From Escherichia coli (GTDB lineage Bacteria > Pseudomonadota > Gammaproteobacteria > Enterobacterales > Enterobacteriaceae), in NCBI RefSeq assembly GCF_044324785.1, contig NZ_CP172127.1: a stretch of DNA of 64,000 nt; one strand, written 5' to 3'. The notes below the pieces were generated by a model that was not told the origin of the DNA, made no database searches, and was given only the letters and a program-made list of their open reading frames with translations. Numbering within the stretch: the stretch's first letter is position 1; each line of letters opens with the position of its first letter. The translations under genes and the position numbers were made by a program. Below, piece after piece: positions 3,715 through 52,938 of the stretch.

Positions 3715-4202
3715 TGAAATCGTTAATTATCGTTAATCCGGCTGACTGTATTGGCTGCCGTACTTGTGAAGTGGCCTGTGTGGTCGCTCACCCTTCAGAA
3801 CAGGAGTTGAATGCCGATGTCTTTTTACCCCGGCTGAAGGTACAGCGACTGGACTGCATCAGTGCGCCGGTGATGTGCCATCAGTGTGAAAACGCCCCTT
3901 GTGTTGGCGCTTGCCCCGTGGGAGCGCTGACGATGGGCGAGCAGGTGGTGCAGGCCAATTCTGCCCGTTGTATTGGCTGTCAGAGTTGCGTCAGTGCGTG
4001 CCCGTTTGGGATGATAACCATTCAGTCGTTGCCGGGGGATACCCGGCAACAAATTGTGAAATGCGATCTCTGTGAACAGCGGGAAGAGGGGCCTGCCTGC
4101 GTTGAATCTTGCCCGACACAGGCGCTGCAGTTGCTTACTGAAAGAGAACTCAGGCGAGTCCGCCAGCAGCGTATTGTTGCCAGCGGTGAGAATCCTCTCT
4201 GA
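3711..4202 (+). CDS. ygfS: 4Fe-4S ferredoxin-type protein
   Basis: 163 aa with four CxxCxxCxxxCP-type cysteine clusters; start overlaps ygfT stop (ATGA), consistent with a ygfST operon. Confidence 0.85.
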
Positions 4203-4237: not shown

Positions 4238-5605
4238 TTAGATTGCCCAACCACCCGCGTAAAATGCGACCAGTGCGGCAGTAATGATCACCGTACCAAT
4301 ATTCAGCTTTTGCCATTCGCGTGCAAAGACGCGGCCTACGACCAGTGTCACAAAGCCCAGCATAATACCGGTAACGATATTACAAGTCAGAACGATGAAC
4401 ACGGCACACACCAGGCCAGCCATAGCGTCAATAAAATCATTGAAATCCAGCTTCGAGACGTTACTTAACATCAGCAAACCTACGTACATCAGAGCGGGTG
4501 CAGTGGCGTAACCAGGGATCAAAAATGACAGCGGTGATAAGAACAAAATCAGCAGGAATAACGCCCCCACTACGGTTGCGGTCAACCCTGTTTTACCCCC
4601 GGCGGCGGTTCCTGCCGCTGATTCGATATAAACCGCTGCGGGCGCTGCGCCCACCAGGCCGGAGAATATTGAACTTACTGAGTCACTGGTCAGGGCTTTG
4701 CCGCCGTTGATGATCTGGTTGTCTTTATCCAACAAATTCGCCTGACCGGCGACGGCACGGATGGTGCCAGTGGCGTCGAACACTGCGGTCATCACCAATG
4801 CTAGTACACTCGGAAGTACAGTTGGCTGGAGTGCGCCCATAATATCGAGGCTGAAAATCAGAGACTTACCATCTTCGCCAGTCAGGCTTGGCATCGCCAC
4901 CAGACCGTGGTATTTCACCGCTGGATCAAAGATTAAGCCGATGATCGAGATGGCAATAATCACCAACAAGATCCCGCCGGGTACGCGGCACTTTTCCAGA
5001 CCGAAGATGACCGCCAGCCCCAGCAAGCTCATCATCACCGGGAAGGAGGTAAACGCACCGAGCGCCACCGGCAAGCCTTCAATCGGGTTTTTGATAACCA
5101 TTCCCACACCGTTAGCAGCAATCAGCAGCAGAAACAGGCCGATACCGATACCTGTACCGTGAGCGATACCCATGGGCAAATTACGTAAGATCCAGGTACG
5201 CACACCGGTTACGGAAATGGCGGTGAAGATGACGCCCATCAGAAAGACCGCGCCCAGTGCGACAGGAACGCTAATTTGTTGCCCGAGTACCAGACTGAAT
5301 GCGGTAAACGCCGTCAAGGAAATCGCGCAACCAATCGCCATTGGCAAATTGGCCCATAACCCCATCAGCAACGAGCCGAAGCCCGCGACCAGACAGGTGG
5401 CAACAAACACAGCTGCGGGAGGAAAACCTGCTTTGCCCAGCATTCCCGGAACGACGATAACGGAATAAACCATGGCCAGAAAGGTCGTTAAGCCAGCCAG
5501 TACTTCCTGACGAACGGTACTGCCACGAGCGGTAATTTTAAAATAATTATCCAGCGCGCCCTGTGGCTTTGGTGCGTCCGGTGTTTGTAGGATGTCTCCA
5601 GACAT
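4238..5605 (-). CDS. ghxQ: Guanine/hypoxanthine permease (NCS2/AzgA family)
   Basis: 455 aa multi-TM protein; length and synteny match K-12 ghxQ (ygfQ). Confidence 0.85.
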
Positions 5606-8539: not shown

Positions 8540-11410
8540 TTATATTTTTTCTAGCGCGGTGAGTATTTTCTCCGGTGTGAAATGCCATTCGCGTAACCAG
8601 ATGCCGCAGGCATCGTGAATTGCGGTAGCAATCGCCGGAGCTGCGCCATTTACACCGATTTCCGAGATCGATTTCGCCCCGAACGGGCCGACTTTATCGT
8701 CGCTCGGCACCAGCACAGCGCGGAAATCACGCGGAATGTCACCAATTTTCGGTGCGCCGTAACTGCGTAAATCACGCGTTAACGGGTGACCTTCGGCGTC
8801 ATAAATGATCTCTTCGCTCATACTGTGGCCGATAGCTCGCAGGGTAGCACCGTAGATTTGTCCCAATGCTAATTCCGGGTTGACCGGTGTACCGCAGTCC
8901 AGCAAGGCGTAGAATTTATCCAGGCGGATTTCACCCGTACGCGTATTGACGGCAACTTCAGCGAAGTTCGCGCCATACGGGAAGGCGAAATCAGGCGTGA
9001 TATAACTGCCAGTTCCCACCAGTGAACCAAAGCCGGTGCCGGTTTCGCCTTTATGGGCAATATCCCCGAAACTAACTTCGCCTTTCTTGCCGCGAACGAC
9101 GCCCGGCGTTGCTAGTTGAACATCTGCCACTGGCTCACCCAACATTTGTGCACCGTGGAACAGAATTTTCTCCCGCAGATTTTCTGCTGCCAAACGCGCC
9201 GCGTTACCCGAGAAGCAAGTACCGGACGAGGCATATGCGCCTTTATCAAACAACGCATGATCGGTATCACCGGAGATAACATGCACGTCCTGCGGTGGGC
9301 AGTGCAGCACTTCTGCTGCCAGTTTCGTCACCACAGTATCCAAACCAGTACCAATATCCGCACCGCCAGAATGAACGATAAAGGTGCCGTCCGATTCCAG
9401 TTTGATCATGCAGTTAGCCTGATCGATATCCGGGATCCCTGATTTCTGCATGATAATGGCGACGCCACGACCGATGTGCCAGTCACCGTTTTGTGGTTTT
9501 GGTGAAGACCATTGGATCATCTCGCGACCCTGACGCAGGATCTCTTCCAGTGCGCAGCTGGCGGCGGAAGGAACGGAGGTCGGCGCTTTACCTTCACCGA
9601 TTGCACCGAGAATTTTCAGCTCTTGCCCTTCGTGTACCCGGTTACGTTCGATAATTTCCAGTTGGTCGATCTGTAACTGTTCAGCCAGTTCCGCTAATGC
9701 CATGGTGATAGCGAAGTTACCTTTCGGTGCGCCATAACCCTGATAAGCACCATTTGGGCAAATGTTGCTGTAGTAGGTGGTGACCTGAAAATCGACGTTA
9801 TCGCACGGATATAACGGCAGCGACAGCGCCGGTCCGTTACACGGTACGGTGAGTGAGTGGTTGCCGTAAGGGCCAGTGTTGGCGCGGAAATCCATCTTCA
9901 CTGCCGTCAGGCGACCATCTTTTTTCGCTCCCAGTTTGACGGTGACTTTCGCGACGTGACGAGAGGTGTTAGCAATAAACTCTTCTTCACGGGTGTAGCG
10001 GAACAGTACCGGACGCCCGGTCACGCAGGTTGCCCAGGCGCACACTTCTTCCAGCAGGATGTCCTGTTTGGAACCAAAACCGCCGCCAACTCGCTCTTTA
10101 ATGACATGAACTTTATGCTGTTTCATGCCCACGAGGCGCGCGACCTGGCGGCGTAAGTGCCATGGTACCTGGGTGGAGGCGTGGATAACCAGACGATCGC
10201 CGTCCATACGGGTAAAGCAGATATGAGTTTCAGTCGGGCACTGCTGCGCCTGCGTTGAGTTATAGGTTCGCTCAATGATCACATCGGCATCGGCAAAGCC
10301 TTTGTCCATATCGCCGATATGACCATGAATACTGGCGGCGATATTTTTACGGGGGCGAGAACCGATCGGGAAGTTGATGATCATATGCTCGCCGCGCTGG
10401 GCTGCATGGCTGTTATCGTCTTCCAGAGTATCTGGCGCACCAGCAACATACACCACCGGTTCATCGTGCACGACAGGCGCATCTTCCGCCATTGCTTCGT
10501 CGATCGACATTACAGGTTTAAGCACTTCATATTCAACGTCGATGAGCTTCAGTGCTTCGAGCGCAATTTCTTCACTTTCTGCGACGACCGCAGCAACGCG
10601 ATCGCCGACGTGACGCATTTTCTTGCCGAACATACGGCGGTCAAGCGGTGACGGTTCCGGTGCGCTCTGACCGCCCGGGGTATAGTAGATATCCGGGCAA
10701 TTCAGGTGAGTAATAACGTGAACAACGCCCGGTAAGGCTTCAGCTTTGCTGACATCCAGATGAGTAATCAGTGCGTGAGCGTGTGGGCTACGTAACATTT
10801 TAATGACGCAGGCGTCAGCCGTTACGCGGTCTTCAACATAGCAGGGTTTCGCCTGCACCATTTTCGCGGCATCAGTTTTAGGATAATGCTTACCAATGAC
10901 TTCAAGGTCATCGCGGAAAGTTGGAGCTATATCAATGGTGGCCTGCGGATTATTTTTACGTGCAACCGCCAGTTCAATGACCTGATAGTATTGTTGCCAG
11001 CCTGCATCGCGGCTGAACAAACCAGAAAGCGCGTCGTCGATCTCTTCGCGGGTCGGTGCGGCAATGCGATCGAGAAGATCGGTGATAATCAGAGCCGCAG
11101 CTGGATCGTTATAACCAGACTGCACCACGCCAACATCAACCATTGCCTGTTGAACCAGACTTAACTCGTTCCATTTGCCCAGAGACTCTGCGGTACGAAT
11201 ATCTGCCTTCTCTAACTGTGCGGCGATAAGCAAGGACGCGTTAACGATATTACCGTTACAGATAATTGCGTCAGAACCGGCAAACCCGAATCCATCATCG
11301 CTGTTGCGTACAGAGTGCATTCCCATGTTAAACAACAGCTTTTGCACGTTTTCGCCTGGATTAACGGTTAGCTCCTGAGGCGCGCCATTTAAAGTAAAGT
11401 GGATGATCAT
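8540..11410 (-). CDS. xdhD: Molybdenum-containing hydroxylase, fused [2Fe-2S] and Mo-cofactor-binding subunit (xanthine dehydrogenase family)
   Basis: 956 aa; N-terminal 2Fe-2S cysteine pattern and aldehyde oxidase/xanthine dehydrogenase-like body; length and synteny match K-12 xdhD. Confidence 0.85.
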   Translation of the reverse strand: MIIHFTLNGAPQELTVNPGENVQKLLFNMGMHSVRNSDDGFGFAGSDAIICNGNIVNASLLIAAQLEKADIRTAESLGKWNELSLVQQAMVDVGVVQSGYNDPAAALIITDLLDRIAAPTREEIDDALSGLFSRDAGWQQYYQVIELAVARKNNPQATIDIAPTFRDDLEVIGKHYPKTDAAKMVQAKPCYVEDRVTADACVIKMLRSPHAHALITHLDVSKAEALPGVVHVITHLNCPDIYYTPGGQSAPEPSPLDRRMFGKKMRHVGDRVAAVVAESEEIALEALKLIDVEYEVLKPVMSIDEAMAEDAPVVHDEPVVYVAGAPDTLEDDNSHAAQRGEHMIINFPIGSRPRKNIAASIHGHIGDMDKGFADADVIIERTYNSTQAQQCPTETHICFTRMDGDRLVIHASTQVPWHLRRQVARLVGMKQHKVHVIKERVGGGFGSKQDILLEEVCAWATCVTGRPVLFRYTREEEFIANTSRHVAKVTVKLGAKKDGRLTAVKMDFRANTGPYGNHSLTVPCNGPALSLPLYPCDNVDFQVTTYYSNICPNGAYQGYGAPKGNFAITMALAELAEQLQIDQLEIIERNRVHEGQELKILGAIGEGKAPTSVPSAASCALEEILRQGREMIQWSSPKPQNGDWHIGRGVAIIMQKSGIPDIDQANCMIKLESDGTFIVHSGGADIGTGLDTVVTKLAAEVLHCPPQDVHVISGDTDHALFDKGAYASSGTCFSGNAARLAAENLREKILFHGAQMLGEPVADVQLATPGVVRGKKGEVSFGDIAHKGETGTGFGSLVGTGSYITPDFAFPYGANFAEVAVNTRTGEIRLDKFYALLDCGTPVNPELALGQIYGATLRAIGHSMSEEIIYDAEGHPLTRDLRSYGAPKIGDIPRDFRAVLVPSDDKVGPFGAKSISEIGVNGAAPAIATAIHDACGIWLREWHFTPEKILTALEKI

Positions 11411-12186
11411 ACGGCTTCCTCCCCAGCCTGTTGGCAGTCGGCATACAGGTCGGCTACCAGAACTCCCGTGATATAGCGTTTATAGGCCACGCTGCCCCGC
11501 AAATCTTCCTGCGGGAAAATGGCGTTGGCGACAGCCTGTTCAAGTGCATTGCCTTCCAGATTTTGTTTTTCAACATCGTGCAGACGCAGGGCTTTACTGG
11601 CGACGCCATCCAGCGCAATTCGCATACCGTCGTGGTCTGTCATTGCAACGGCTGCCGTCACGACGGTTAAACCTGCCTGAGAACGGCTAATTTTGCGGGT
11701 CGCACAGGTGCGATACGGATCTTTAATGATAATTTCGGTTAGCAGGCGATCGCATGGGCAGGCCAGGTACTCTTCGATTGACAGTGTTTCGCCATTGCCA
11801 AAAACCAGTTCAGCATCCAGTGCCAGCAGGACGGGAAGCAGCACAGACTCTTCCTGCCGGGCGGCGATTTCACCACCAATGGTCGACTGATTACGAACAT
11901 GGCGAGAGTAGACAAAGCCGAGGGCTTCACGCAGTGCTGCAGGAATAAATCGCGCATCACGCAGTGGCTGCAAGCGAGACATTGCGCCAATCCGCAGTGC
12001 ACCGTTATCCCAGTCAACCCAGTCCAGTTCCAGATCCTGTAAGGAAATGGCAATCTTTTTATCGGTACGGGTTGGTGTAGCGTTGAGTTTGCTGCCCCCG
12101 GCGAACCAGACGGCTTCATCCTGGTAGCGGCGCTTCAGTTCCAGCGCCTGTTCGACAGAGTCGGGCCTGAAAAATTGTTCAATCAT
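11407..12186 (-). CDS. ygfM: FAD-binding subunit of molybdenum hydroxylase (CoxM/XdhB-like)
   Basis: 259 aa; start overlaps xdhD region (operon); synteny. Confidence 0.8.
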   Translation of the reverse strand: MIEQFFRPDSVEQALELKRRYQDEAVWFAGGSKLNATPTRTDKKIAISLQDLELDWVDWDNGALRIGAMSRLQPLRDARFIPAALREALGFVYSRHVRNQSTIGGEIAARQEESVLLPVLLALDAELVFGNGETLSIEEYLACPCDRLLTEIIIKDPYRTCATRKISRSQAGLTVVTAAVAMTDHDGMRIALDGVASKALRLHDVEKQNLEGNALEQAVANAIFPQEDLRGSVAYKRYITGVLVADLYADCQQAGEEAV

Positions 12187-12236: not shown

Positions 12237-13565
12237 TTATGCCAACGCATCCATCCGACGCCACATACTGGCAGCGGCTTTTCTGGCTTGCGCATAAATG
12301 GAATCGCAATCGAAGTTAAACTGACGGTCTTCATAGACCATCACGCCATTGACCATCACGCTATGAACGCTGCCTGAGCCCATACCGAAAGCGATATGCC
12401 CGGCGATATTGTCTGCCAGCAGCGGTGTCGGCGAGTTGTAATCGCAAATGGTTAAATCGGCTTTGTAACCGGCTTCCAGAAGGCCAAATTTCGCGCCAAA
12501 GTTGCGGCTCATCAGTTCGTTGCCGTTAGCCAGTGCTTTGGCAAAACTGTCAGGCCACAGCGGACCACCCGCATCGCGATGTTTAAAGAAGGCAAATTTC
12601 ATCTCTTCAAACATGTCCGAACCAATGCCGTCCGTTCCCAACGCCAGATTGCGGATGTCGCTAAGGTGATGGTTGTAGCCGACATGGTTGTTCATGTTTG
12701 AACGGGCGTTATGCACCAGGAACGCATCGCGCTGATTGAGTAGGGCGATGTCATCTTTCGACAAGTACAGCCCATGAGCGACCAGCGTTTTGCTGTCGAT
12801 GAGATCGAATTGCGCCAGTCGTGCCAGCAGGTCTTTGCCGTACCAGTGGTGACTGTAGGAAACGTCATAAAGGTCTTCCGCAGCGTGAATATGCAAACCA
12901 CGACCTGTGGCTTTCACGGCTTCACGCAGCATCTCCAGACCGGCATCCGGCACGGTAAACGGCGCGTGAGCGCCGATATGTGCTTCCACCAGATACGGCT
13001 CGGTTGCTGCTTTCTTCGCCTCATCAATCTGACGGGCGAAGCGGATGTTTTCTTCTACACCTTCCTGCAACTCTTTGATGCCGTTGTTACGGTCAGTAGT
13101 TTCAAAACAGGTCATCGCGCGCAGGCCAACTTTTAAAAATGCGTTGCGCAATGTGGAGAGCGACCCGCCGATATACGCCGGAGAGGCATGGTGATCGATA
13201 ACCGATGTACATCCGCTCTTAATTGCTTCCAGGGTACAAATCAGTCCGCTGTAATAGAGCGACTCTTCATCAAGGGCGCGATCGAGTCGCCACCAGAGAT
13301 TTTTCAGCGTTGAGATGAAATCCGGGCAGGGGGCGATGTTTGCCATAATTCCGCGGGACAGCCCCGAGTAAAAATGGTTGTGCGAGCAGACAATTCCCGG
13401 CATCACAATCCGACCATGCATCTCTTTGTAGCTGGCATCGGGGTAGCGTTGCGTCAGGGCATCGCCGATAGCGACAATCACATCATTTTCGATGGCGATA
13501 TCAACGCCTTCCTGCACTTTCGCCGGGTGTAACTGCACTGCGGTGACATTCTTCAGAATCAACAT
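12237..13565 (-). CDS. ssnA: Amidohydrolase (chlorohydrolase/aminohydrolase family)
   Basis: 442 aa; HxH metal-binding motif near the N-terminus (CSHNHFYSG); synteny. Confidence 0.85.
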   Translation of the reverse strand: MLILKNVTAVQLHPAKVQEGVDIAIENDVIVAIGDALTQRYPDASYKEMHGRIVMPGIVCSHNHFYSGLSRGIMANIAPCPDFISTLKNLWWRLDRALDEESLYYSGLICTLEAIKSGCTSVIDHHASPAYIGGSLSTLRNAFLKVGLRAMTCFETTDRNNGIKELQEGVEENIRFARQIDEAKKAATEPYLVEAHIGAHAPFTVPDAGLEMLREAVKATGRGLHIHAAEDLYDVSYSHHWYGKDLLARLAQFDLIDSKTLVAHGLYLSKDDIALLNQRDAFLVHNARSNMNNHVGYNHHLSDIRNLALGTDGIGSDMFEEMKFAFFKHRDAGGPLWPDSFAKALANGNELMSRNFGAKFGLLEAGYKADLTICDYNSPTPLLADNIAGHIAFGMGSGSVHSVMVNGVMVYEDRQFNFDCDSIYAQARKAAASMWRRMDALA

Positions 13566-13567
13566 GA

Positions 13568-16500
13568 TTACACCTCCACGCGGCCCAGCAGATAATGATG
13601 ATGCTGGTGGACATGGCTAATGATGCGGCACATATCGTTCAGCTCCGGTGGTACGTTGTTGAACTGACCTTCGCTGTCGATGTTTAACACCCAGCTTTGG
13701 TTATTCAGACGTACTCGTACCCGGCAATCTTCCACAAGGAAGCCTGGGTTGCTGCTGTTATCAAAGTCTTGCGACAGGCTGAAGACGGTGATTTTGTCTT
13801 TGTACGGTTTACCGTTCCACGGACAGAACTGAGCGCAGTTGCCGCATTCGTTACAGTAAGCGTCGAGGTGCAGCGTCTGGAAACGGTTCTGGAAGCCAGG
13901 GACCGCAATGGAGACGTTGGCGCGGTTCGGGCAGACATCCACACACTTGCTGCAAACGTAGTTACATTCAAGGCAGCGAGCAGCTTCCTGCGCGACAAAC
14001 GCATCACGATCGTCACTGTTCACCAGCGTGATAGAGATATCGCCTTTACGTTGATAGATTTCCGCCGGATTGACGTTGTTCCAGTATTTATCGTTCTGGT
14101 GGGAACGGATATTTTCCCGACTAAGGATGGCATCGGTCGCCCGACGCGCGGTTCCGACAGCAGCGACAATGGAGGATGGTCCGCGCTGTACGTCGCCGAT
14201 CATAAAGACGTCAGTCAGACGAGTTTCGCCATTATGGTCGACGTCTGGCCAGCCGTTTTTGTCCAGCGGCACGCCCATCGCATTCAGGGCTTCAGTATCC
14301 TGCTGTTCACCAATGGCGGTGATCAGGCTGTCTACATGCAGTGTTACTGTTTCGTTGGTTTCAACCGGACGGCGACGACCTTTCTCATCAGGTTCGCCAA
14401 GCGACATAACGCGCAAGGTTAAGGTGCCATCAGCATCGAAACGTTCCGGATTATTCAGGAAACGGAACTCCACGCCGTCGTGCAACGCTTCTTCATACTC
14501 TTCGCGCCATGCTGGCATCTCTTGCAGTGAACGACGGTAAACGACCGTTGCTTTTTCTACGCCTGGAACGCGTAACGCCGCACGAGCGCAGTCCATTGCC
14601 GTGTTACCCGCCCCGACAACGACCACATGTTTGCCCAGCTTGAGCGCTGTGCCCTTGTTGTATTCACGCAGGAAGGGGAGTGATTTCCAGACATTTTGGT
14701 TGTCGCCCGCCAGTTTCACACCGCTATTTTTATCAGTGCCGGTGGCAATCAGAACATAGTGGAAGCCCTGATTTTTTAACTGTTCAACGGTCAAATCGGG
14801 TGAGCAGCCATACTCAAATTTCACGCCGTGAGCGGCAACAAAATCGATATCGTGCTGAATTAACTCTGCAGGAATACGGAACTGAGGAATGATATTTTTC
14901 ACCACGCCGCCCGCATTGGCTTCGCGTTCAAACAGCGTAACCGGATGGCCCGCTCTGGCAAGGAAGTAACCTGCTGCCAGACCCGCCGGACCTGCACCAA
15001 TCACGGCAACCGGATGGCGTGAACCAGAACCGGCTGGTTTGTGCCAGCGTTGCTTATATTCATCCCAACCTTTTTCCAGCGCGACTTTTTTCAGTTCGCG
15101 GATATTCAGCGCACTGTCGTAATCCAGGCGGGTACAGTTGTATTGGCACTGGTGATCGCAAATATGACCGGTAATGGCGGGCAGGGCGTTGCGTTGGTAG
15201 ATGAGTTCCAGTGCGTCGGCATAGCGGTGTTCGCCAAGCAGACGGATGTATTCCGGAATATCCTGTTTAATGGCGCAAGCAGTAACGCACGGTGCAACGT
15301 AGCAGTCGGTCAGCGGCAGGTCTTCTGCCACTTCAATACGCTCTTCTGGCTTCCAGTGTTTCTGAGTGTATTCCATGGTTAACGCGTCTGCTGCCAGTTT
15401 GTTCAGTCGTTCGACGTCAACATGGTCAAGCCCCCAGGCGTCGGAGCCTTCCAGCTCGCGCATGCAGGCACTTAAGCGCAGATAGCCGCCAGGTTTCAGC
15501 AGGTCGGTTGCCATCGTGATAGGGCGAATACCAGTATCAAAAATATCGCGGATAGTCAGCTGACTGGCACCACCGGAATAAGAAATGGGCAGTTTGCCGT
15601 CAAAGGCGCGAGAGAGAACTGCTGCAACATTGATGGAGAGCGGGAACAGCGCACGGCCTGACATATACATCTCTTCACCAGGCAGTGCGCCTTTATTGTT
15701 GATGGTGCCGAGAGTGTTAGTCAGTTTTACGCCAAAGCCGAGTGATTTTTCTTTTGCCAGTGCCATCAGACGTTCCAGCATTTCCAGTGCTTGCGTCAGC
15801 TTGAGGTCGTGATCAAATGACTCTTCTTTTAAGCCTATGTAACCGAAACCGCAGACATCGAGGATCTCACGAACACGCGCGTACCCCAGTAAGGTCGGGT
15901 TGAGTTTCACAAAGGTATTGAGCCCTTTTTCTTCCAGCATGTAGCGGCAAATGGCTTCGATTTCATGCGGAGGACAGCCGTGCATGGTGGAGAGGGTGAC
16001 GCCCTGCACCATGCTGGTGGGGATGCGAGCGGGTAAGGCTTGCAAGCTTTCGCGTTTTTCCTGCAATCCGTGGCGGGCTAAAAATGCGTCATCCTGGAGT
16101 AATTTATTCAGCGTATCGCGATATTGAGCGAATTTCGGATGGTCAGATGCGTCCATCATATTGTCGATGAACTGTTGCATCGGCGGTTGCTTAATACCTT
16201 CGAGGTTGTAACCGACGCTCATATTAAAGATGAACGATTTACCGGAATCAGAAGGCTGGAACATCGCTTCGAGAAGGTGCAGGGCAAACCAGGCTTTGAG
16301 GTATTCATCCCAGGCTTTAAGCAGGGTAAATTCGGTGGACCATTCGGTGTTAAAGCACTCGTCTTCGGCATCAATACAGGGCTTTTCCAGCTCCAGGCGG
16401 TCAAGAATTTGGACGGTTTTTAGTTCGATGAAGCGTCCGCCAGTCAGCCAGGAAGTGACAATATTTTGCGCGAGCTGCGTGTGCGGGCCAGCGGCAGGGC

Positions 16501-20152: not shown

Positions 20153-21085
20153 TTACTGACAAATCACCGTTCCGGTTTTGCCTTCAATCCCTTCTTTCGC
20201 TTTGCTCAATACGGTAATCAGTGCTTCACGACCTGCGCGAGAGCGAGCAAACGAGGCGGCAGCTTCCACTTTAGGCAGCATAGAACCTTTCGCAAAATGA
20301 CCTTCTTCGATAAAGCGTTCAGCATCACTTAATGACAGGCGATCGAGCCACTGTTCATTCTCTTTACCGAAGTTAATGGCCACTTTTTCTACCGCAGTCA
20401 GAATGATCAGCATATCGGCATCAATCATCTCTGCTAAACGGGCGCTGGCCCAGTCTTTATCAATAACCGCGCTGGCACCACGCAGATGGTTACCTTCACG
20501 AATAACAGGAATACCACCACCGCCAACGGTGATCACTACCTGGCCTGCATCTACCAGAGCTTTAACCGTTTCTTTTTCAATGATATCAACCGGTTTTGGC
20601 GAGGCAACAACACGGCGATAGCCGCGACCAGCATCTTCTTTCAGAGTGTAACCCTGTTTTGTCAGTTGCTCTGCTTCCTGCTCGGTAAAGAACGAACCGA
20701 TCGGCTTGGTCGGGTTGAGGAATGCCGGATCGTTAGCATCGACTTCGACCTGGGTAACCAGCGTTGCTACAGGTTTATTAATGCCACGAGAAAGCAGTTC
20801 TTCTCTTAAGGCGTTTTGTAGATCGTAACCAATATAGCCCTGGCTTAAGGCAACACAGACAGACATCGGCAGCATTGGCGAGTGCGCTTCAGTTTTTGCG
20901 GCAGCTTCAAAGGCCTGGTTAATCATGCCCACCTGTGGCCCGTTACCATGAGTGACGATGACCTCATGTCCCTGGGCAATTAAATCAACAATTGCCTGAG
21001 AAGTAATTTTTACCGCTTTCATTTGTCCGGCCAGGTCGTCGCCCAGCGCATTCCCGCCCAGGGCGAGAACAATTTTCTTACTCAT
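20153..21085 (-). CDS. yqeA: Carbamate kinase-like protein
   Basis: 310 aa; amino-acid kinase family N-terminus (KIVLALGGNAL); synteny. Confidence 0.85.
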   Translation of the reverse strand: MSKKIVLALGGNALGDDLAGQMKAVKITSQAIVDLIAQGHEVIVTHGNGPQVGMINQAFEAAAKTEAHSPMLPMSVCVALSQGYIGYDLQNALREELLSRGINKPVATLVTQVEVDANDPAFLNPTKPIGSFFTEQEAEQLTKQGYTLKEDAGRGYRRVVASPKPVDIIEKETVKALVDAGQVVITVGGGGIPVIREGNHLRGASAVIDKDWASARLAEMIDADMLIILTAVEKVAINFGKENEQWLDRLSLSDAERFIEEGHFAKGSMLPKVEAAASFARSRAGREALITVLSKAKEGIEGKTGTVICQ

Positions 21086-33561: not shown

Positions 33562-33725
33562 AACAAACATTTCTCAACGTCTACTGAAGTCCATCAAATC
33601 CACGAATATCAAGCCTTTCAGCCATTTTCATAGCTTATTAACGTCTACTCACAACTACCAGAATCTACACACAGAAGTGTATAGTAATGCGTATAGGACA
33701 AAATTTATTTTTTGGAGCTATACAC

Positions 33726-39023: not shown

Positions 39024-39326
39024 ATGAAGAAGATTAAATTTACTGGCTTAAATGCCAGCGGACAGACTCACCCGAAAATCAGGATCGGGGATATTTTCCG
39101 GGATAAATATGGTGACAGCGTGGTTATTAATTCCGTGTATGAACGGCACATTACATACCGCCGCGCAGGGTACGACTATGACTGTGTGATGCCCGTTCAT
39201 CAGTTCCGGCGTGATTTTTCACTGGTATGTGCAGTACCACGCAGTAAGCCCACCAGTAAAGAGAAAGCACGGGCAAATATTCAGGTAATAAAGAACATGA
39301 TTAACGCATTCAGGGGCAAGAAATGA
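39024..39326 (+). CDS. Hypothetical protein
   Basis: 100-aa ORF; stop overlaps the start of the 708-aa replication gene (ATGA). Confidence 0.4.
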   Translation: MKKIKFTGLNASGQTHPKIRIGDIFRDKYGDSVVINSVYERHITYRRAGYDYDCVMPVHQFRRDFSLVCAVPRSKPTSKEKARANIQVIKNMINAFRGKK

Positions 39327-48273: not shown

Positions 48274-51029
48274 TGAAACAGGCATGTGTTGAAGCTATTG
48301 CGCAGACACTTGGTCGCCAGCCAAAGGCTGATGAGCTGAAAAATATCGAAGATCGTATCAAAGAAGCAGTGCAACATGTGCACAGAAAGAATGCAAAAGA
48401 AGGCAAAAGTGGTATTCCTGATGCTCAAACATACATGGATGCTGCAGAACTGGTACGCCAGCGTGTGGTTCATGATGTGTACAAGAAAAGACAGCGTGTT
48501 GCCCAGAATGCGATCGCCATCAGTAAAATTACTGACACTCTCGATGCTAACATCCCGCCTGATCAGCAGACACCTGTTAATTTGCAGCAGTTTATTTTTG
48601 CTGGCCGACGATCGAGAGACAAAGCTGATATCTCCGTTGCTTCTGCTGAAGAGCTTGCAATTGGGGCATATCAGGACTGGTCCCGTCAGCTCAGTGCTGA
48701 ACTTCTAAAAGCAGGTGATGACGTCCGCAAATTCTTCGAGCAGAGCAGGGCGCTTGGAGAGCAGCGGTTTCGGAGTGTATTCGACAGGCAGGCGGCAAAG
48801 TCTGCACAACTCCAGATCCTGAAAGAAATATATGGCGAAGATACCGGGAATCCCCTGGCGAAGAAAATTGCACAGATTTGGAAGGATGTAACAGGCCGTG
48901 TTCGTCATGAGATGAACGACAATGGCTTTGACATAGGCCTGCGAGAAGACTGGCATACGCCATATGTGGATGATGCTGACCTTATTCGCAATGCCGGGCG
49001 CGAAGAATGGCTGGCATCGTTACCAGTGGCAGAGCAAGCTACAGCACGTCTTTCAGGTCGCCAGCCACCGATTGAGTTTGCCCGCCAGAAATGGGTTGAT
49101 GACGCTTACAACACGCAGGATCGCAGCAATTACGTTAATCCTGACGGCAGCATTATGAATGACGTCGAGTACCGTCAGGCACTGGAAGCGATCTTTGAAA
49201 CGAAGGCCACTGATGGGGCAAACAAAATTGAGCCTGGTACATTTATGGGAGCCGGAGGAATAAAGAGCCGTGGTTCTCAGCACAGGGTGATGGCGTTCAA
49301 GGATGCGCAGTCACACTTCGCCTATATGGAACGATACACTCAGCAGCCGCTGGTGGGGGTGATGATGTCGCACCTGCAATCATCATCCAGGGATTTGGGC
49401 GTCGTTAAAGCCTTTGGTCCGGACGCCGAAAGAAACTTTTCCCTGGTACTGGATCGCATCTATAAGCGCGCAGTAACAGGCGGGAAACGCAAAAAAGAAA
49501 TGGAGGATGAGGCCAAATTAGTTGCCCGTATGTTCAACTCAATGGCTGGCCTAAATGGTGTCGCTTCATCGAGTGTGTTCTCTTCAGCAGTTGGTGGTCT
49601 GCGTAACCTGATGACCAGCGCCATGCTTGGCACCAGCGTACTGACAGCAACCAGCGACCAGGCAATTATGCGGGCAAATGCGCAGGCGCTGGGCTTTACC
49701 CGTGGTGGAATGCGGCTTTCCGTTAACACTATCAAAAACCTGTTTAGTGGAGATGCCAAAAAGGCGAATGCTGAACTCGGTCTGCTGGTGGATTCACATG
49801 CTGCTGTGGTTTCGAAAATGGGCGGGTTTGACTTGTCTCGCGGCATAACTGGCTGGTTCGCAGAGAAGACACTGAAGTGGTCCGGGCTGATCGCTATGGA
49901 CCGCGCAAACAAAGCGTCGTTTGGTCTCCTGATGTACAAAAACATTGGCGAGCTGACCAGAAAATTTAAGACGCTGGACGATATGAAAGGAACCGATAAA
50001 ACCATTCTGGCTAACAAGGGATGGAGCAATGAGGACTGGGCCATCATGGCAGCGGCAGAACTCAGGCCGATGACTACTGCCGGGCATATGGGGATGACGC
50101 CAGACGCGATTTACGCTGTGCCCGATAACGTAATAGCCGACATTATGGCAGACCGTATTACCCGGATTCGTGCCGGGAGTGAAAAGGCACTGGCAGCCCT
50201 TGGAGATCTCCCTCCAGAACGCCTGAAACGGATGAAAGAAGCATTCGACGCTGAGGCTGAGCAGACCATCACGCGCATGATTCGTAATGCACGCGCTGAA
50301 GCAGCCCAGAAATTGCTGGGAATTACGCACGGTGAGATGACCAATGCTGTGACCACCGCTACGGGTATTGATACATATGCCCGTGATGATGCTGGCGAGT
50401 TAATGAAGAGCTTCATGCTCTTCAAAACAACCCCATTTGCTGGATTTCGGCAACTTGTTAACAGAACACGGGATTTGGACACCGTTCCGGCCATTAAATT
50501 TCTGGCCTCATATATCGGGGGAACAACTCTTGCTGGTATGTTTGCGATCCAGATGAACAGTTTGTTAAATGGTAATGATCCGCTGGATATGACAAAACCA
50601 ACCACATGGGTTCAGGCTTTACTGAAAGGTGGTTCGTTCGGTATCTACGGTGATTTTATTTTCCAGGACCATACGCAATATGGCTCCAGAATCGGTGCCA
50701 CTATGGGTGGCCCTGTGTTGAGCTTTGCAGAGCAGTTAACAAAATTACTGATTACTAACCCACAGAAGGCTCTACAGGGTGAAGAAACATCATTCGGTGC
50801 CGATGCACTGAAAACAGCCCGCATGATCACCCCATTCGCAAACCTGTGGTATGCGAAAGCGATAACCAATCACCTGATATTGCAACAACTTCAGGAGATG
50901 GCAAACCCTGGTTACAATGATCGAGTAAGGGACCGCGCGCAACGGGAGTTCGACATAACGAGTTGGTGGGAACCGGGTGCTATTGCGCCACGTAGAGCAC
51001 CGGATTTTGGAAAGGCGGTGGGGAACTGA
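48273..51029 (+). CDS. Large hypothetical protein (918 aa), cargo operon gene 3
   Basis: ATG at 48273 overlaps the upstream stop (TAATG) with a GAGGA RBS; the ORF-track start at 48252 is a GTG in the same frame; no recognisable catalytic motif. Confidence 0.6.
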   Translation: MKQACVEAIAQTLGRQPKADELKNIEDRIKEAVQHVHRKNAKEGKSGIPDAQTYMDAAELVRQRVVHDVYKKRQRVAQNAIAISKITDTLDANIPPDQQTPVNLQQFIFAGRRSRDKADISVASAEELAIGAYQDWSRQLSAELLKAGDDVRKFFEQSRALGEQRFRSVFDRQAAKSAQLQILKEIYGEDTGNPLAKKIAQIWKDVTGRVRHEMNDNGFDIGLREDWHTPYVDDADLIRNAGREEWLASLPVAEQATARLSGRQPPIEFARQKWVDDAYNTQDRSNYVNPDGSIMNDVEYRQALEAIFETKATDGANKIEPGTFMGAGGIKSRGSQHRVMAFKDAQSHFAYMERYTQQPLVGVMMSHLQSSSRDLGVVKAFGPDAERNFSLVLDRIYKRAVTGGKRKKEMEDEAKLVARMFNSMAGLNGVASSSVFSSAVGGLRNLMTSAMLGTSVLTATSDQAIMRANAQALGFTRGGMRLSVNTIKNLFSGDAKKANAELGLLVDSHAAVVSKMGGFDLSRGITGWFAEKTLKWSGLIAMDRANKASFGLLMYKNIGELTRKFKTLDDMKGTDKTILANKGWSNEDWAIMAAAELRPMTTAGHMGMTPDAIYAVPDNVIADIMADRITRIRAGSEKALAALGDLPPERLKRMKEAFDAEAEQTITRMIRNARAEAAQKLLGITHGEMTNAVTTATGIDTYARDDAGELMKSFMLFKTTPFAGFRQLVNRTRDLDTVPAIKFLASYIGGTTLAGMFAIQMNSLLNGNDPLDMTKPTTWVQALLKGGSFGIYGDFIFQDHTQYGSRIGATMGGPVLSFAEQLTKLLITNPQKALQGEETSFGADALKTARMITPFANLWYAKAITNHLILQQLQEMANPGYNDRVRDRAQREFDITSWWEPGAIAPRRAPDFGKAVGN

Positions 51030-51343
51030 TGACGAGAGATAAAATTGAATATATTGCTTCTCTTAAATATGAAGCTGAGAAATGGAGAAGGATTGGCGGG
51101 TGGGGAACATTAATATCACTCTCTGCTTTACTTATAGACTCCTGGTTCAGACATATTGATGCAGCATCATTACTTTTTGAATCAGCAGTACTTGGTGGAT
51201 TCATTTGCTGTTGGGGTGGTAATTATGATCGGGCGTCCAAACATAAGAGAGAACTTGACGCGATATGTTTTGCTTTATTCGGTAAGGATTACGAAAGTTC
51301 TGACCTTGATATAATTGAATTCAACAAAACGGAACTATCGTGA
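51029..51343 (+). CDS. Small protein with one hydrophobic segment (104 aa), cargo operon gene 4
   Basis: TGATG coupling to gene 3; predicted membrane-spanning stretch (LISLSALLIDSWF...VLGGFICCWGG); followed by a terminator. Confidence 0.45.
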   Translation: MTRDKIEYIASLKYEAEKWRRIGGWGTLISLSALLIDSWFRHIDAASLLFESAVLGGFICCWGGNYDRASKHKRELDAICFALFGKDYESSDLDIIEFNKTELS

Positions 51344-51351
51344 CATGTCAC

Positions 51352-51376
51352 AGGCCGCTTTCGCGGCCTTGTTTTT
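51352..51376 (+). terminator. Rho-independent terminator of the cargo operon
   Basis: Stem aggccgc / gcggcct with loop tttc, followed by TGTTTTT; 9 nt after the stop of the 104-aa gene. Confidence 0.6.
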
Positions 51377-52045
51377 AACGAATGCCACCGCCGCCCGGGC
51401 GGGAATTCGCAGATAAAAAAGCACGCTGCACGGTTTTATTAATACTTATACCATTAGGATTGATCCTTCAATGGACAATCCTTCCATCGTGTGGCCAGCC
51501 ATTCATATTCTTTGTCTTTTCTTCAGTATCGGCTTTGCATCTTCTACACCCTGAAAGATGTCGTTTTATGGTGTATCTGATGATTTATTCCCTAACAATA
51601 GATATTCGAAAAATTAATCAGTTAAAACAATTATTTGGATAATTTCAGGTAAAACTATCTTAATCTTCTGGTGGATCTCAATGCGTAGTGACGGTATCGG
51701 GATTAAGGGCGTGGATATTCGCGATATATGCCGCTACACCCCTCAACAGTAATAGATATGAGCTTTTCACGCTCTCCTTTCACTGCTGAGAACGGCAACA
51801 ACGTGCCACAGGAACGCGCTGTAATCGATTCTGACGCACTTAATTGCGTTGGGTAATGGTTTTTGCCAGCCTGTGGGGGTAACTCTGTTTTATGAGGCTT
51901 TGGCTATAGTGCAAAAATACACTTTGTCTTGCCTCTCAATTTGATGAGACTGGAACGACAACAGGACAGACCACCAGCAACAGTTACCGTATTCAGCCGT
52001 TCTGTGGCACCAGTGGAACTATCAACCCCTGCTTTCAGCAATGTG

Positions 52046-52203
52046 TTTGCGGGTTATTTTGGGGCGTTTGCGGGTTATTTGGGATGTTTTGCGGGTTATG
52101 TGATGCTTGAATAATGAACAGTGTATTTTGCAACATATTGATACTAAAGAACAAAAAATAGTTAGCATACTAAGATAACCCGGTAACCCGCATAACCCGC
52201 ACT
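52046..52203. repeat. Iteron cluster B: three inverted and three direct copies of the same (A/G)TAACCCGC motif
   Basis: TTTGCGGGTTAT at 52046, 52067 and 52088; ATAACCCGG at 52175, GTAACCCGCA at 52183, ATAACCCGCAC at 52193; same motif as cluster A, ~10.5 kb away, just inside attR. Confidence 0.55.
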
Positions 52204-52688
52204 GTTTTGTATATATATACGAAAAATTGCATTCAGGAGGGGGGGAGCGAAATCCCTACAATCCATTGCTTATGGGACCGCCCGCCTCGTCAAATTTTTA
52301 CACCCGCGAAATAAAAAAATACTTCACGCTGGTGGGCATGATGCTGATATGGGAGGCTTCCATAACGCCACCATTCGGAACTATGCAAATCTGCATAGAA
52401 AAGGGGATGCCTGATACAATACCCTCGCCCGATAAAATCACACCGATAAACTCATCTGCCACGAGTAGAAAGAGCGAACGAACCCGATACGCAGTAATGC
52501 TTGTCGGGTACAGCTTTTTAAGGCGGCTGTAGATATCAGGCCATCCGTGATCATCCACCAGCGAGATAGCCGATAACGATGACGCATAACCCTCAAGCGA
52601 GGGATAAATGTGTATAGAAATGTGTATAGAATTGATTTTAGAACTCGCAGGATTCGCGCTATTACTGGCCTTGTGTGATGTTGTATTG

Positions 52689-52706
52689 TTCCCTTCGCCC
52701 GCTCCA
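52689..52706 (+). repeat. attR core (duplicated glyU 3' end)
   Basis: Exact 18-bp copy of the glyU 3' end, 19.1 kb downstream of the tRNA. Confidence 0.75.
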
Positions 52707-52938
52707 ATTTATCTTCACCTCATCAACCTGTCATTTTTGTTGTATCTGATTTTCTATATTATCTTAATTCAATCGCTTCAGACTTTTCGCAATCGCCGAA
52801 ATACTTCCCCATTTTTTTGTAAATAAAAGCGTTTACGCAATGCAATCCATTTGTAACAACCCAGGTAAAATACCTTATTTTCAAGTTGTTAAATAAGTGG
52901 TTATCTACGCTTTTAACAAACGATTGATGGAATCTTTT

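Follow-up and report, generated by a model that had tools for sequence, protein, structure and literature searches.

Cluster B, an array of short repeats just inside the right attachment site of an Escherichia coli phage satellite of the PICI type, is probably the distal module of a replication origin that has been split into two modules. It was analysed within a 64,000-nucleotide stretch of DNA, here called the window, and comparison with many relatives shows it to be a conserved array of iterons of the cognate Rep type, with the anatomy of an origin, belonging to a compound origin that exists in both adjacent and split forms. It may act as initiation site, as second origin or as regulator. 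Among the phage satellites of Enterobacteria, PICIs and cf-PICIs rank with the most abundant, and the model of how they replicate has a single ori located by pri-rep.

The element is a 19.2-kb PICI-type satellite inserted in tRNA-Gly, with all of its genes reading rightwards (Table 1). Its gene order starts with an integrase, an AlpA-like regulator, Ant/BRO proteins, an Icd-like protein and a DUF4222 protein, continues with Rep, and is completed by SSB, a ProQ/FinO protein, PerC and three large proteins of phage virion families, a content that corresponds to the Gram-negative PICI/cf-PICI backbone (PMC6092414; bioRxiv 10.1101/2022.09.08.507074). Identical or near-identical islands were found in 44 of 5,426 complete E. 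coli genomes. The gene of the PerC-family regulator (about 43020-43250; 11373-11598 in locus L001) is a frameshifted pseudogene in the RefSeq annotation of the island of strain AH19D088, which is ~99% identical to the window island at the region compared. The cargo (43682-51029) consists of genes for proteins of 843, 686 and 918-925 aa from the phage virion/internal-protein families phrog_992, 1145 and 684, and PADLOC defence-system models gave no matches among the cargo and Rep proteins. Homologues ~92% identical to the 925-aa protein of L095, a relative of the N iteron type described below, occur on many ~40-kb IMG/VR phage contigs, and the window-type copies of this protein (L154/L155) are about 88% identical to that of L095. 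Such resemblances suggest that virion or ejection proteins of the helper type are present as copies in the satellite, a situation reminiscent of EcCIMP1 and phage Kapi1 (PMC11773190).

Table 1. Position of the features discussed in the text, in window coordinates
Feature	Position	Strand	Remarks
attL core TTCCCTTCGCCCGCTCCAA	33544..33562	+	3' end of tRNA-Gly-CCC
Rep (pri-rep) gene	39323..41449	+	708-aa DUF927 initiator-helicase, annotated primase/helicase
Cluster A	41473..41597		24 bp past Rep stop codon; canonical PICI ori position
Cluster B left set, three exact TGCGGGTTA iterons	52048..52098	+	Starts at 52048, 52069, 52090
Cluster B AT-rich spacer	52099..52174		76 bp, 72% A+T
IHF consensus match TATCAATATGTTG in cluster B spacer	52131-52143	-	Consensus WATCAANNNNTTR
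Cluster B right set, three abutting inverted iterons	52176..52201	-	One degenerate, two exact
TA-rich element CTGTTTTGTATATATATACGAAAAATTGCATTCAG, candidate DNA-unwinding element	52202..52236		Directly after last cluster B iteron
phiP27-type cos	52236..52318	+	84.5% identity to annotated phage phiP27 cos region
Two GTGTATAGAA repeats, candidate integrase arm-type sites	52610..52631	+	Third copy at 33677-33686, next to int
attR core TTCCCTTCGCCCGCTCCAA	52689..52707	+	19-bp direct repeat identical to attL

The 9-mer TGCGGGTTA occurs in 11 exact copies in the 64-kb window, all of them confined to clusters A (41473-41597) and B (52048-52201), which are 10.5-10.6 kb apart. When one mismatch is allowed, the matches rise to 33, against 14.2 +/- 3.6 in shuffled sequences and with 33 reached in none of 100 shuffles, the extra ones being scattered singletons. 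The initial annotation, which had described the same iteron in a second cluster ~10.5 kb away and inside attR, was therefore right on this point. The motif is not a dispersed genomic repeat, the case that the same annotation had named as refuting its proposal: the 3.27 Mb of fetched sequence contain 552 clustered and 84 isolated exact copies (chance expectation ~25).

Cluster B starts 10.6 kb beyond the stop codon of Rep and leaves 488 bp to the attR core, in a stretch that is non-coding according to the RefSeq annotation of an identical element and that follows terminator-like hairpins at 51352 and 51830, in keeping with its original placement between a terminator and attR. The iterons of its left set are spaced 21 bp, that is, two helical turns, and they are invariant in 20 distinct relatives in which the inter-iteron spacers vary. 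Three direct and three inverted identical copies had been reported; the three direct ones are exact, as are two inverted copies of sequence TAACCCGCA (52184-52192 and 52193-52201), but the third inverted one is the degenerate TAACCCGG at 52176-52183, where relatives carry TAACCCGC. The spacer between both sets contains the sole exact IHF consensus match of the 19-kb island, which is retained in the relatives L002, L003 and L067 and absent from L062 and L084. In a predicted single-strand DNA fold, cluster B shows the iteron-iteron hairpin (z = -2.75) that its inverted repeats lead one to expect, so that the hairpin adds no evidence of its own. From cluster B onwards, the right end of the island continues with the TA-rich element, cos, a fragment resembling rlfB, the integrase arm repeats and attR. 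An Rfam scan of 51300-52800 returned nothing meaningful, and no B-like sequence was found in a plasmid collection. In a phage collection, phage matches were limited to the cos part and to the rlfB-like fragment, with the iterons of cluster B matching only a short unannotated 2.2-kb phage record. The rlfB-like fragment comprises ~70 bp (52450-52520, minus strand) that are 84% identical to part of the rlfB (replication protein) gene of phages P1/P7, and lies inside a small annotated hypothetical ORF (52298-52558, minus strand).

Cluster A occupies the position expected for the origin of a PICI and is made of two abutting direct iterons, a 45-bp spacer of 71% A+T and four inverted iterons with spacings of 11, 21 and 21. 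Cluster B is its mirror image: cluster A reads as abutting(+)-AT-phased(-), and cluster B as phased(+)-AT-abutting(-). The Rep encoded just upstream of cluster A has DUF927 as its sole Pfam match (E = 1.6e-46), was assigned to phrog_1139, and matches in the PDB the 'pathogenicity island protein' 8TCH (E = 2.2e-14) and SCCmec Cch, 5DGK (E = 9e-4), similarities that place it in the initiator family of the SaPI Rep, a self-loading MCM-like helicase. SaPI Reps recognize their iterons with a C-terminal winged-helix domain (PMC9371898); the assignment of such a fold to the C-terminal domain of the window Rep rests on homology to those proteins, its AlphaFold model (pLDDT 45) being too poor for a fold search. 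The opposed iteron sets around an AT-rich centre that characterize the SaPI/PICI ori (PMC9371898, PMC6092414) are found in cluster B as well, and its iterons, identical to those of cluster A, would be cognate to Rep, as suggested by their co-variation in three iteron types. The location immediately 3' of rep (pri-rep) applies to cluster A but not to cluster B. GC skew gives no origin signal, being uniformly positive across the island because all of its genes are co-oriented. The proposal that the clusters bracket the element did not stand, since they only bracket its right-hand half (from ssb to the cargo), with cluster A 7.9 kb away from attL, nor did a role in partition, given that the island has no par genes.

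How general this arrangement could be was seen in Rep loci gathered from IMG/VR, E. coli genomes and one E. albertii genome, whose iteron clusters were scored by script; the E. albertii locus (L067) was the single one returned by a scan of genome contigs with very specific peptide patterns. Both clusters were directly adjacent in 40 of 92 non-identical Rep loci, across six iteron types, a circumstance that the initial annotation had missed. In this class, which includes the prototype cf-PICI EcCIEDL933, 11-12 iterons are found within about 310 bp after rep. Another 29 of the 92 loci showed the clusters split, with B 2.3-10.6 kb downstream; natural distances between A and B go from 0 to 11 kb. 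Only cluster A was visible in the remaining 23, most of which are truncated contigs. Three of these apparently A-only loci (L095-L097) share the layout of the window, and when re-fetched around the 925-aa gene, L095 and L097 revealed a distal cluster ~11 kb from A, whereas the contig of L096 ends before the expected position. In all 14 elements for which both ends were available, a single A module was accompanied by one or more cognate B modules, and A never stood alone, which answers positively the check proposed earlier on the conservation of both clusters in related elements. Altogether, the two clusters of the window are a split version of one compound origin. The segment 52041-52367 matches ~185 further E. 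coli genomes at 80-90% identity, and in each of the seven loci inspected a PICI or cf-PICI carries the match at its right end. A peculiar case is that of L065 (13001-14189, E. coli AH19B041), where the right end of a cf-PICI (B plus TA-rich element) abuts a complete HK97-like prophage at its terminase large-subunit gene, which is truncated at the 5' end, a junction that may correspond to a satellite-phage recombinant formed at or near cos.

Split pairs were seen with three iteron sequences, TGCGGGTTA, TGAACCAAC and TGGGACAAG. The N-type elements carry TGAACCAAC in both clusters, as in L084 (A at 11722-11830, B at 20168-20290) and L108 (A at 4025-4117, B at 15095-15206), and in L108 and L110 the split pair comes with the layout of the window, flanking ssb and the three virion genes. 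The E. albertii L067 shows TGGGACAAG-like iterons in both clusters, only 2.3 kb apart, and its B module has the same TA-rich element and phiP27-type cos as the window, with iterons that match its own Rep. This case amounts to a natural swap experiment, in which the iterons change with Rep next to an unchanged flank. The first three Reps compared were nearly identical at residues 145-600 and differed mainly at their termini, and the iteron type was found to follow the C-terminal ~100 aa (~60-110 aa in the Rep of the window). Over 97 loci, Reps of one iteron type were 76-92% identical in their last 60 aa and Reps of different types 29-67%, with similar iterons paired with similar C-termini. This co-variation of the distal iterons with both the proximal cluster and the Rep C-terminus favours the view that the clusters are paired cis sites of one replicon, as had been suggested at the outset.

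Iterons and spacers of cluster B have also diverged to very different extents. When 20 distinct B regions were aligned, variation was seen in 3 of 51 columns of the iterons versus 54 of 104 in the spacers (Fisher p = 4e-9), and nucleotide diversity was 0.006 in the iterons versus 0.139 in the spacers, about 24-fold less, a pattern pointing to purifying selection on the iterons. The idea of a decaying relic was rejected on the basis of this conservation. The TA-rich element next to the last iteron is constrained as tightly as the iterons, with pi = 0.006 in the 20 sequences, and no 20-mer of the B region is less stable than the one within it, which ranks 41 of 19,122 in the island. For the four iteron types with the best sampling (G, D, K and N), most elements have it after cluster B, whether B is adjacent or distal, and more diverged TA-rich versions follow B in EcCIEDL933 and in the N-type L084. 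A survey allowing 3 mismatches gave no match to this element in five G-type joined loci and in its N-type loci.

Some elements depart from this scheme. In L002 and L063, two E. coli PICIs at tRNA-Pro/yejM, a Rep C-terminus of the GGGACAAC type accompanies an adjacent A+B origin of the same type, and an intact but non-cognate B of the TGCGGGTTA type is found with cos at the right end (15008-15165 and 13008-13154, respectively). At the same tRNA-Pro site, L189 has a cognate split version and keeps, directly after A, a degenerate relic made of a last iteron and TA-rich element, as if the proximal B had been lost and the distal one kept. Judging from L002 and L063, an element with no cognate Rep can retain its B module, at least in the short term. 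Together with L189, they suggest that the Rep C-terminal domain is transferred along with the adjacent origin as a cassette, and that elements can transiently hold two B modules, either of which can be lost. A mobile cassette, states with two B modules and the loss of either copy would be expected if B were needed in cis with a free position.

Under the reading that we consider most probable, after induction and excision Rep would act as a self-loading MCM-like hexameric helicase that binds both modules through its C-terminal domain. IHF would bend the spacer of cluster B, melting would begin at the TA-rich element beside it, and Rep-Rep looping across 8-10 kb of the circular element would join A and B. 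In such a model, B would be an initiation site similar to the ori of P4, and A its gene-proximal partner similar to crr. Counting against a need for B, each module alone already shows two iteron sets around an AT-rich region, and A might be sufficient by itself, with B redundant or regulatory. The plasmid test done with the pri-ori of EcCICFT073 used the gene-proximal region only, where one or both modules may lie (PMC6092414). A stronger proposition, which we regard as tentative and rather doubtful, is that the origin of this large PICI/cf-PICI family is obligately composed of two parts, with A and a B bearing the unwinding element both needed in cis and separable to at least 11 kb by bridging of Rep hexamers. 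The space between modules would then be a cargo slot, and one lineage would have parked B next to cosN, 78 bp away, giving replication initiation and packaging a common starting point. If so, the slot would be the place where ssb, regulators, capsid/terminase modules or stolen virion genes are loaded.

The alternative that best survives, although unlikely, is that cluster B is a second and fully independent Rep-dependent origin that needs no communication with A. Each module alone fits the published anatomy of the PICI/SaPI ori, and both are similar in iteron number and AT-rich spacers. However, the presence of both module types in every complete element suggests that they are not redundant, and A and B consistently differ in form, with the TA-rich element only at B and a mirror-image layout. 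The history of L189, which lost the proximal B yet kept the distal one, also speaks against independence.

Much less probable is that cluster B is a negative array for copy control or titration, of the handcuffing type, instead of an initiation site. Arrays of this kind are found in P1 (incA), F (incC) and chromosome 2 of V. cholerae, and in iteron plasmids, too, an additional cognate array is located at a distance from the initiator gene; co-variation and conservation would fit such a function equally well. A satellite, on the other hand, needs burst replication after induction and not copy limitation, and a pure control array would require neither an AT-rich spacer nor an IHF consensus nor an unstable TA-rich element, all of which cluster B has. 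Moreover, B abuts A within one compact origin in the 40 relatives of the adjacent class.

We give the same low credit to a Rep-controlled promoter/operator formed by cluster B and the TA-rich element, which in the circular island would read through cos and attP into int. This idea draws on adjacent-type and N-type elements in which B is 15-40 bp upstream of a gene (the ssb operon or perC), as well as on the gene start that follows the TA-rich element in EcCIEDL933, L002 and L084, the last one with a perfect TATAAT. In the window, by contrast, a consensus promoter scan found nothing at 52200-52240, and there is neither an acceptable -35 nor a downstream gene. The run of G residues after the TA-rich element (52240-52246) varies from 5 to 8 G among relatives, so nothing is translated from there, and the 21-bp phased left set and AT-rich spacer would be left unexplained.

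Beyond the TA-rich element, the phiP27-type cos of the window includes an equivalent, CGCCCGCCTC (52279-52288), of the 10-nt cohesive end of phiP27, CGCCCGCCCC, located 78 bp past the last iteron of B. Several Burkholderia phage genomes have physical ends that match this cos segment as well. Having such a cos, and no terminase, HNH or capsid genes, the island would depend for its packaging on a helper, or else on a cf-PICI whose terminase is of the P27 family. Least credible of all is that cluster B is a non-functional recombination relic travelling with cos or a terminase-binding, cosB-like part of it: its closeness to cosN and the independence of the B+cos block from Rep specificity in L002 and L063 are set against iterons far less variable than spacers across 20 diverged sequences, iterons that change to match Rep while the TA-rich element and cos stay constant in L067, B modules without a phiP27-type cos in EcCIEDL933, L084 and other lineages, and phiP27-type cos sites 3.8 kb from the origin modules in L024 or devoid of such iterons in phage phiP27. 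The short distance between B and cosN is a feature of the lineage of the window and not of the B module, and the packaging role once considered for the repeats gives way to this separate cos downstream of them, which B lacks elsewhere. As for the integrase, the repeat GTGTATAGWA (33677-33686, 52610-52619 and 52622-52631; 3 matches versus 0.12 expected) probably represents its arm-type sites, distinct from the iterons. Cluster B as an arm site was rejected, given that there is no TGCGGGTTA near attL and that the arm-like repeats are those of GTGTATAGWA.

Taken as the two ends of a series, adjacent and split origins with matching iterons would offer a natural system for the study of how a self-loading MCM-like helicase is recruited and oriented. 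The same series bears on long-range looping by the initiator in PICIs, so far a phenomenon of P4 and plasmids, and on whether an origin next to cos affects concatemer formation and packaging. At a practical level, tools for satellite finding or ori annotation that only scan 3' of rep will miss half of such an origin, and engineered PICI vectors with only the rep-proximal cluster may replicate poorly.

Regarding known systems, the closest one by membership is the Rep-iteron ori of SaPIs and PICIs, and the closest by architecture is the ori/crr pair of P4. The former follows pri-rep directly on its 3' side (Ubeda et al.; Fillol-Salom et al. 2018 PMC6092414; Qiao et al. 2022 PMC9371898) and shares with the window family an initiator of the DUF927 family, short opposed iterons around an AT-rich centre and a specificity that tracks the Rep C-terminus. 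The published origin is however a single set-AT-set unit by rep, whereas the window family has two mirror-image units, the second of which in the window island is 10.6 kb from rep and by cos. No description of a distal, split or mirror-image double origin module of a PICI was found in the searchable literature.

The resemblance to P4 put forward in the initial annotation holds for the layout and not for homology. In both systems, two clusters of one initiator-binding repeat are kilobases apart, one of them directly 3' of the initiator gene: in the P4 record (L107), crr (4291-4590) is directly 3' of the alpha gene and near attP, and ori (9086-9809) is 4.7 kb away with the same type-1 repeats. 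Each 120-bp crr repeat opens with a pair of type-1 iterons spaced 9 bp, after which come inverted copies, the same local layout as in cluster A. On the contrary, the initiators are unrelated (Rep versus P4 alpha by BLASTP, best E = 0.12, not significant), the iteron of P4 is TGTTCACC and that of the window TGCGGGTTA, and the two P4 sites have no mirror-image relation; no fusion of both sites is known from P4 relatives. The window element is, moreover, a PICI, without sid, delta or psu genes and with a different cos.

A more distant parallel can be drawn with the plasmid systems of R6K (gamma with alpha/beta), P1 (incC/incA) and F (incB/incC), which also combine iteron arrays separated by kilobases with an IHF site within the origin, and whose arrays are thought to communicate by initiator-mediated looping. 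Those systems depend on a plasmid Rep (winged-helix dimer/monomer), loading of the host DnaB and copy control, whereas in the window a single protein serves as both initiator and helicase, within a replicon that is an inducible satellite.
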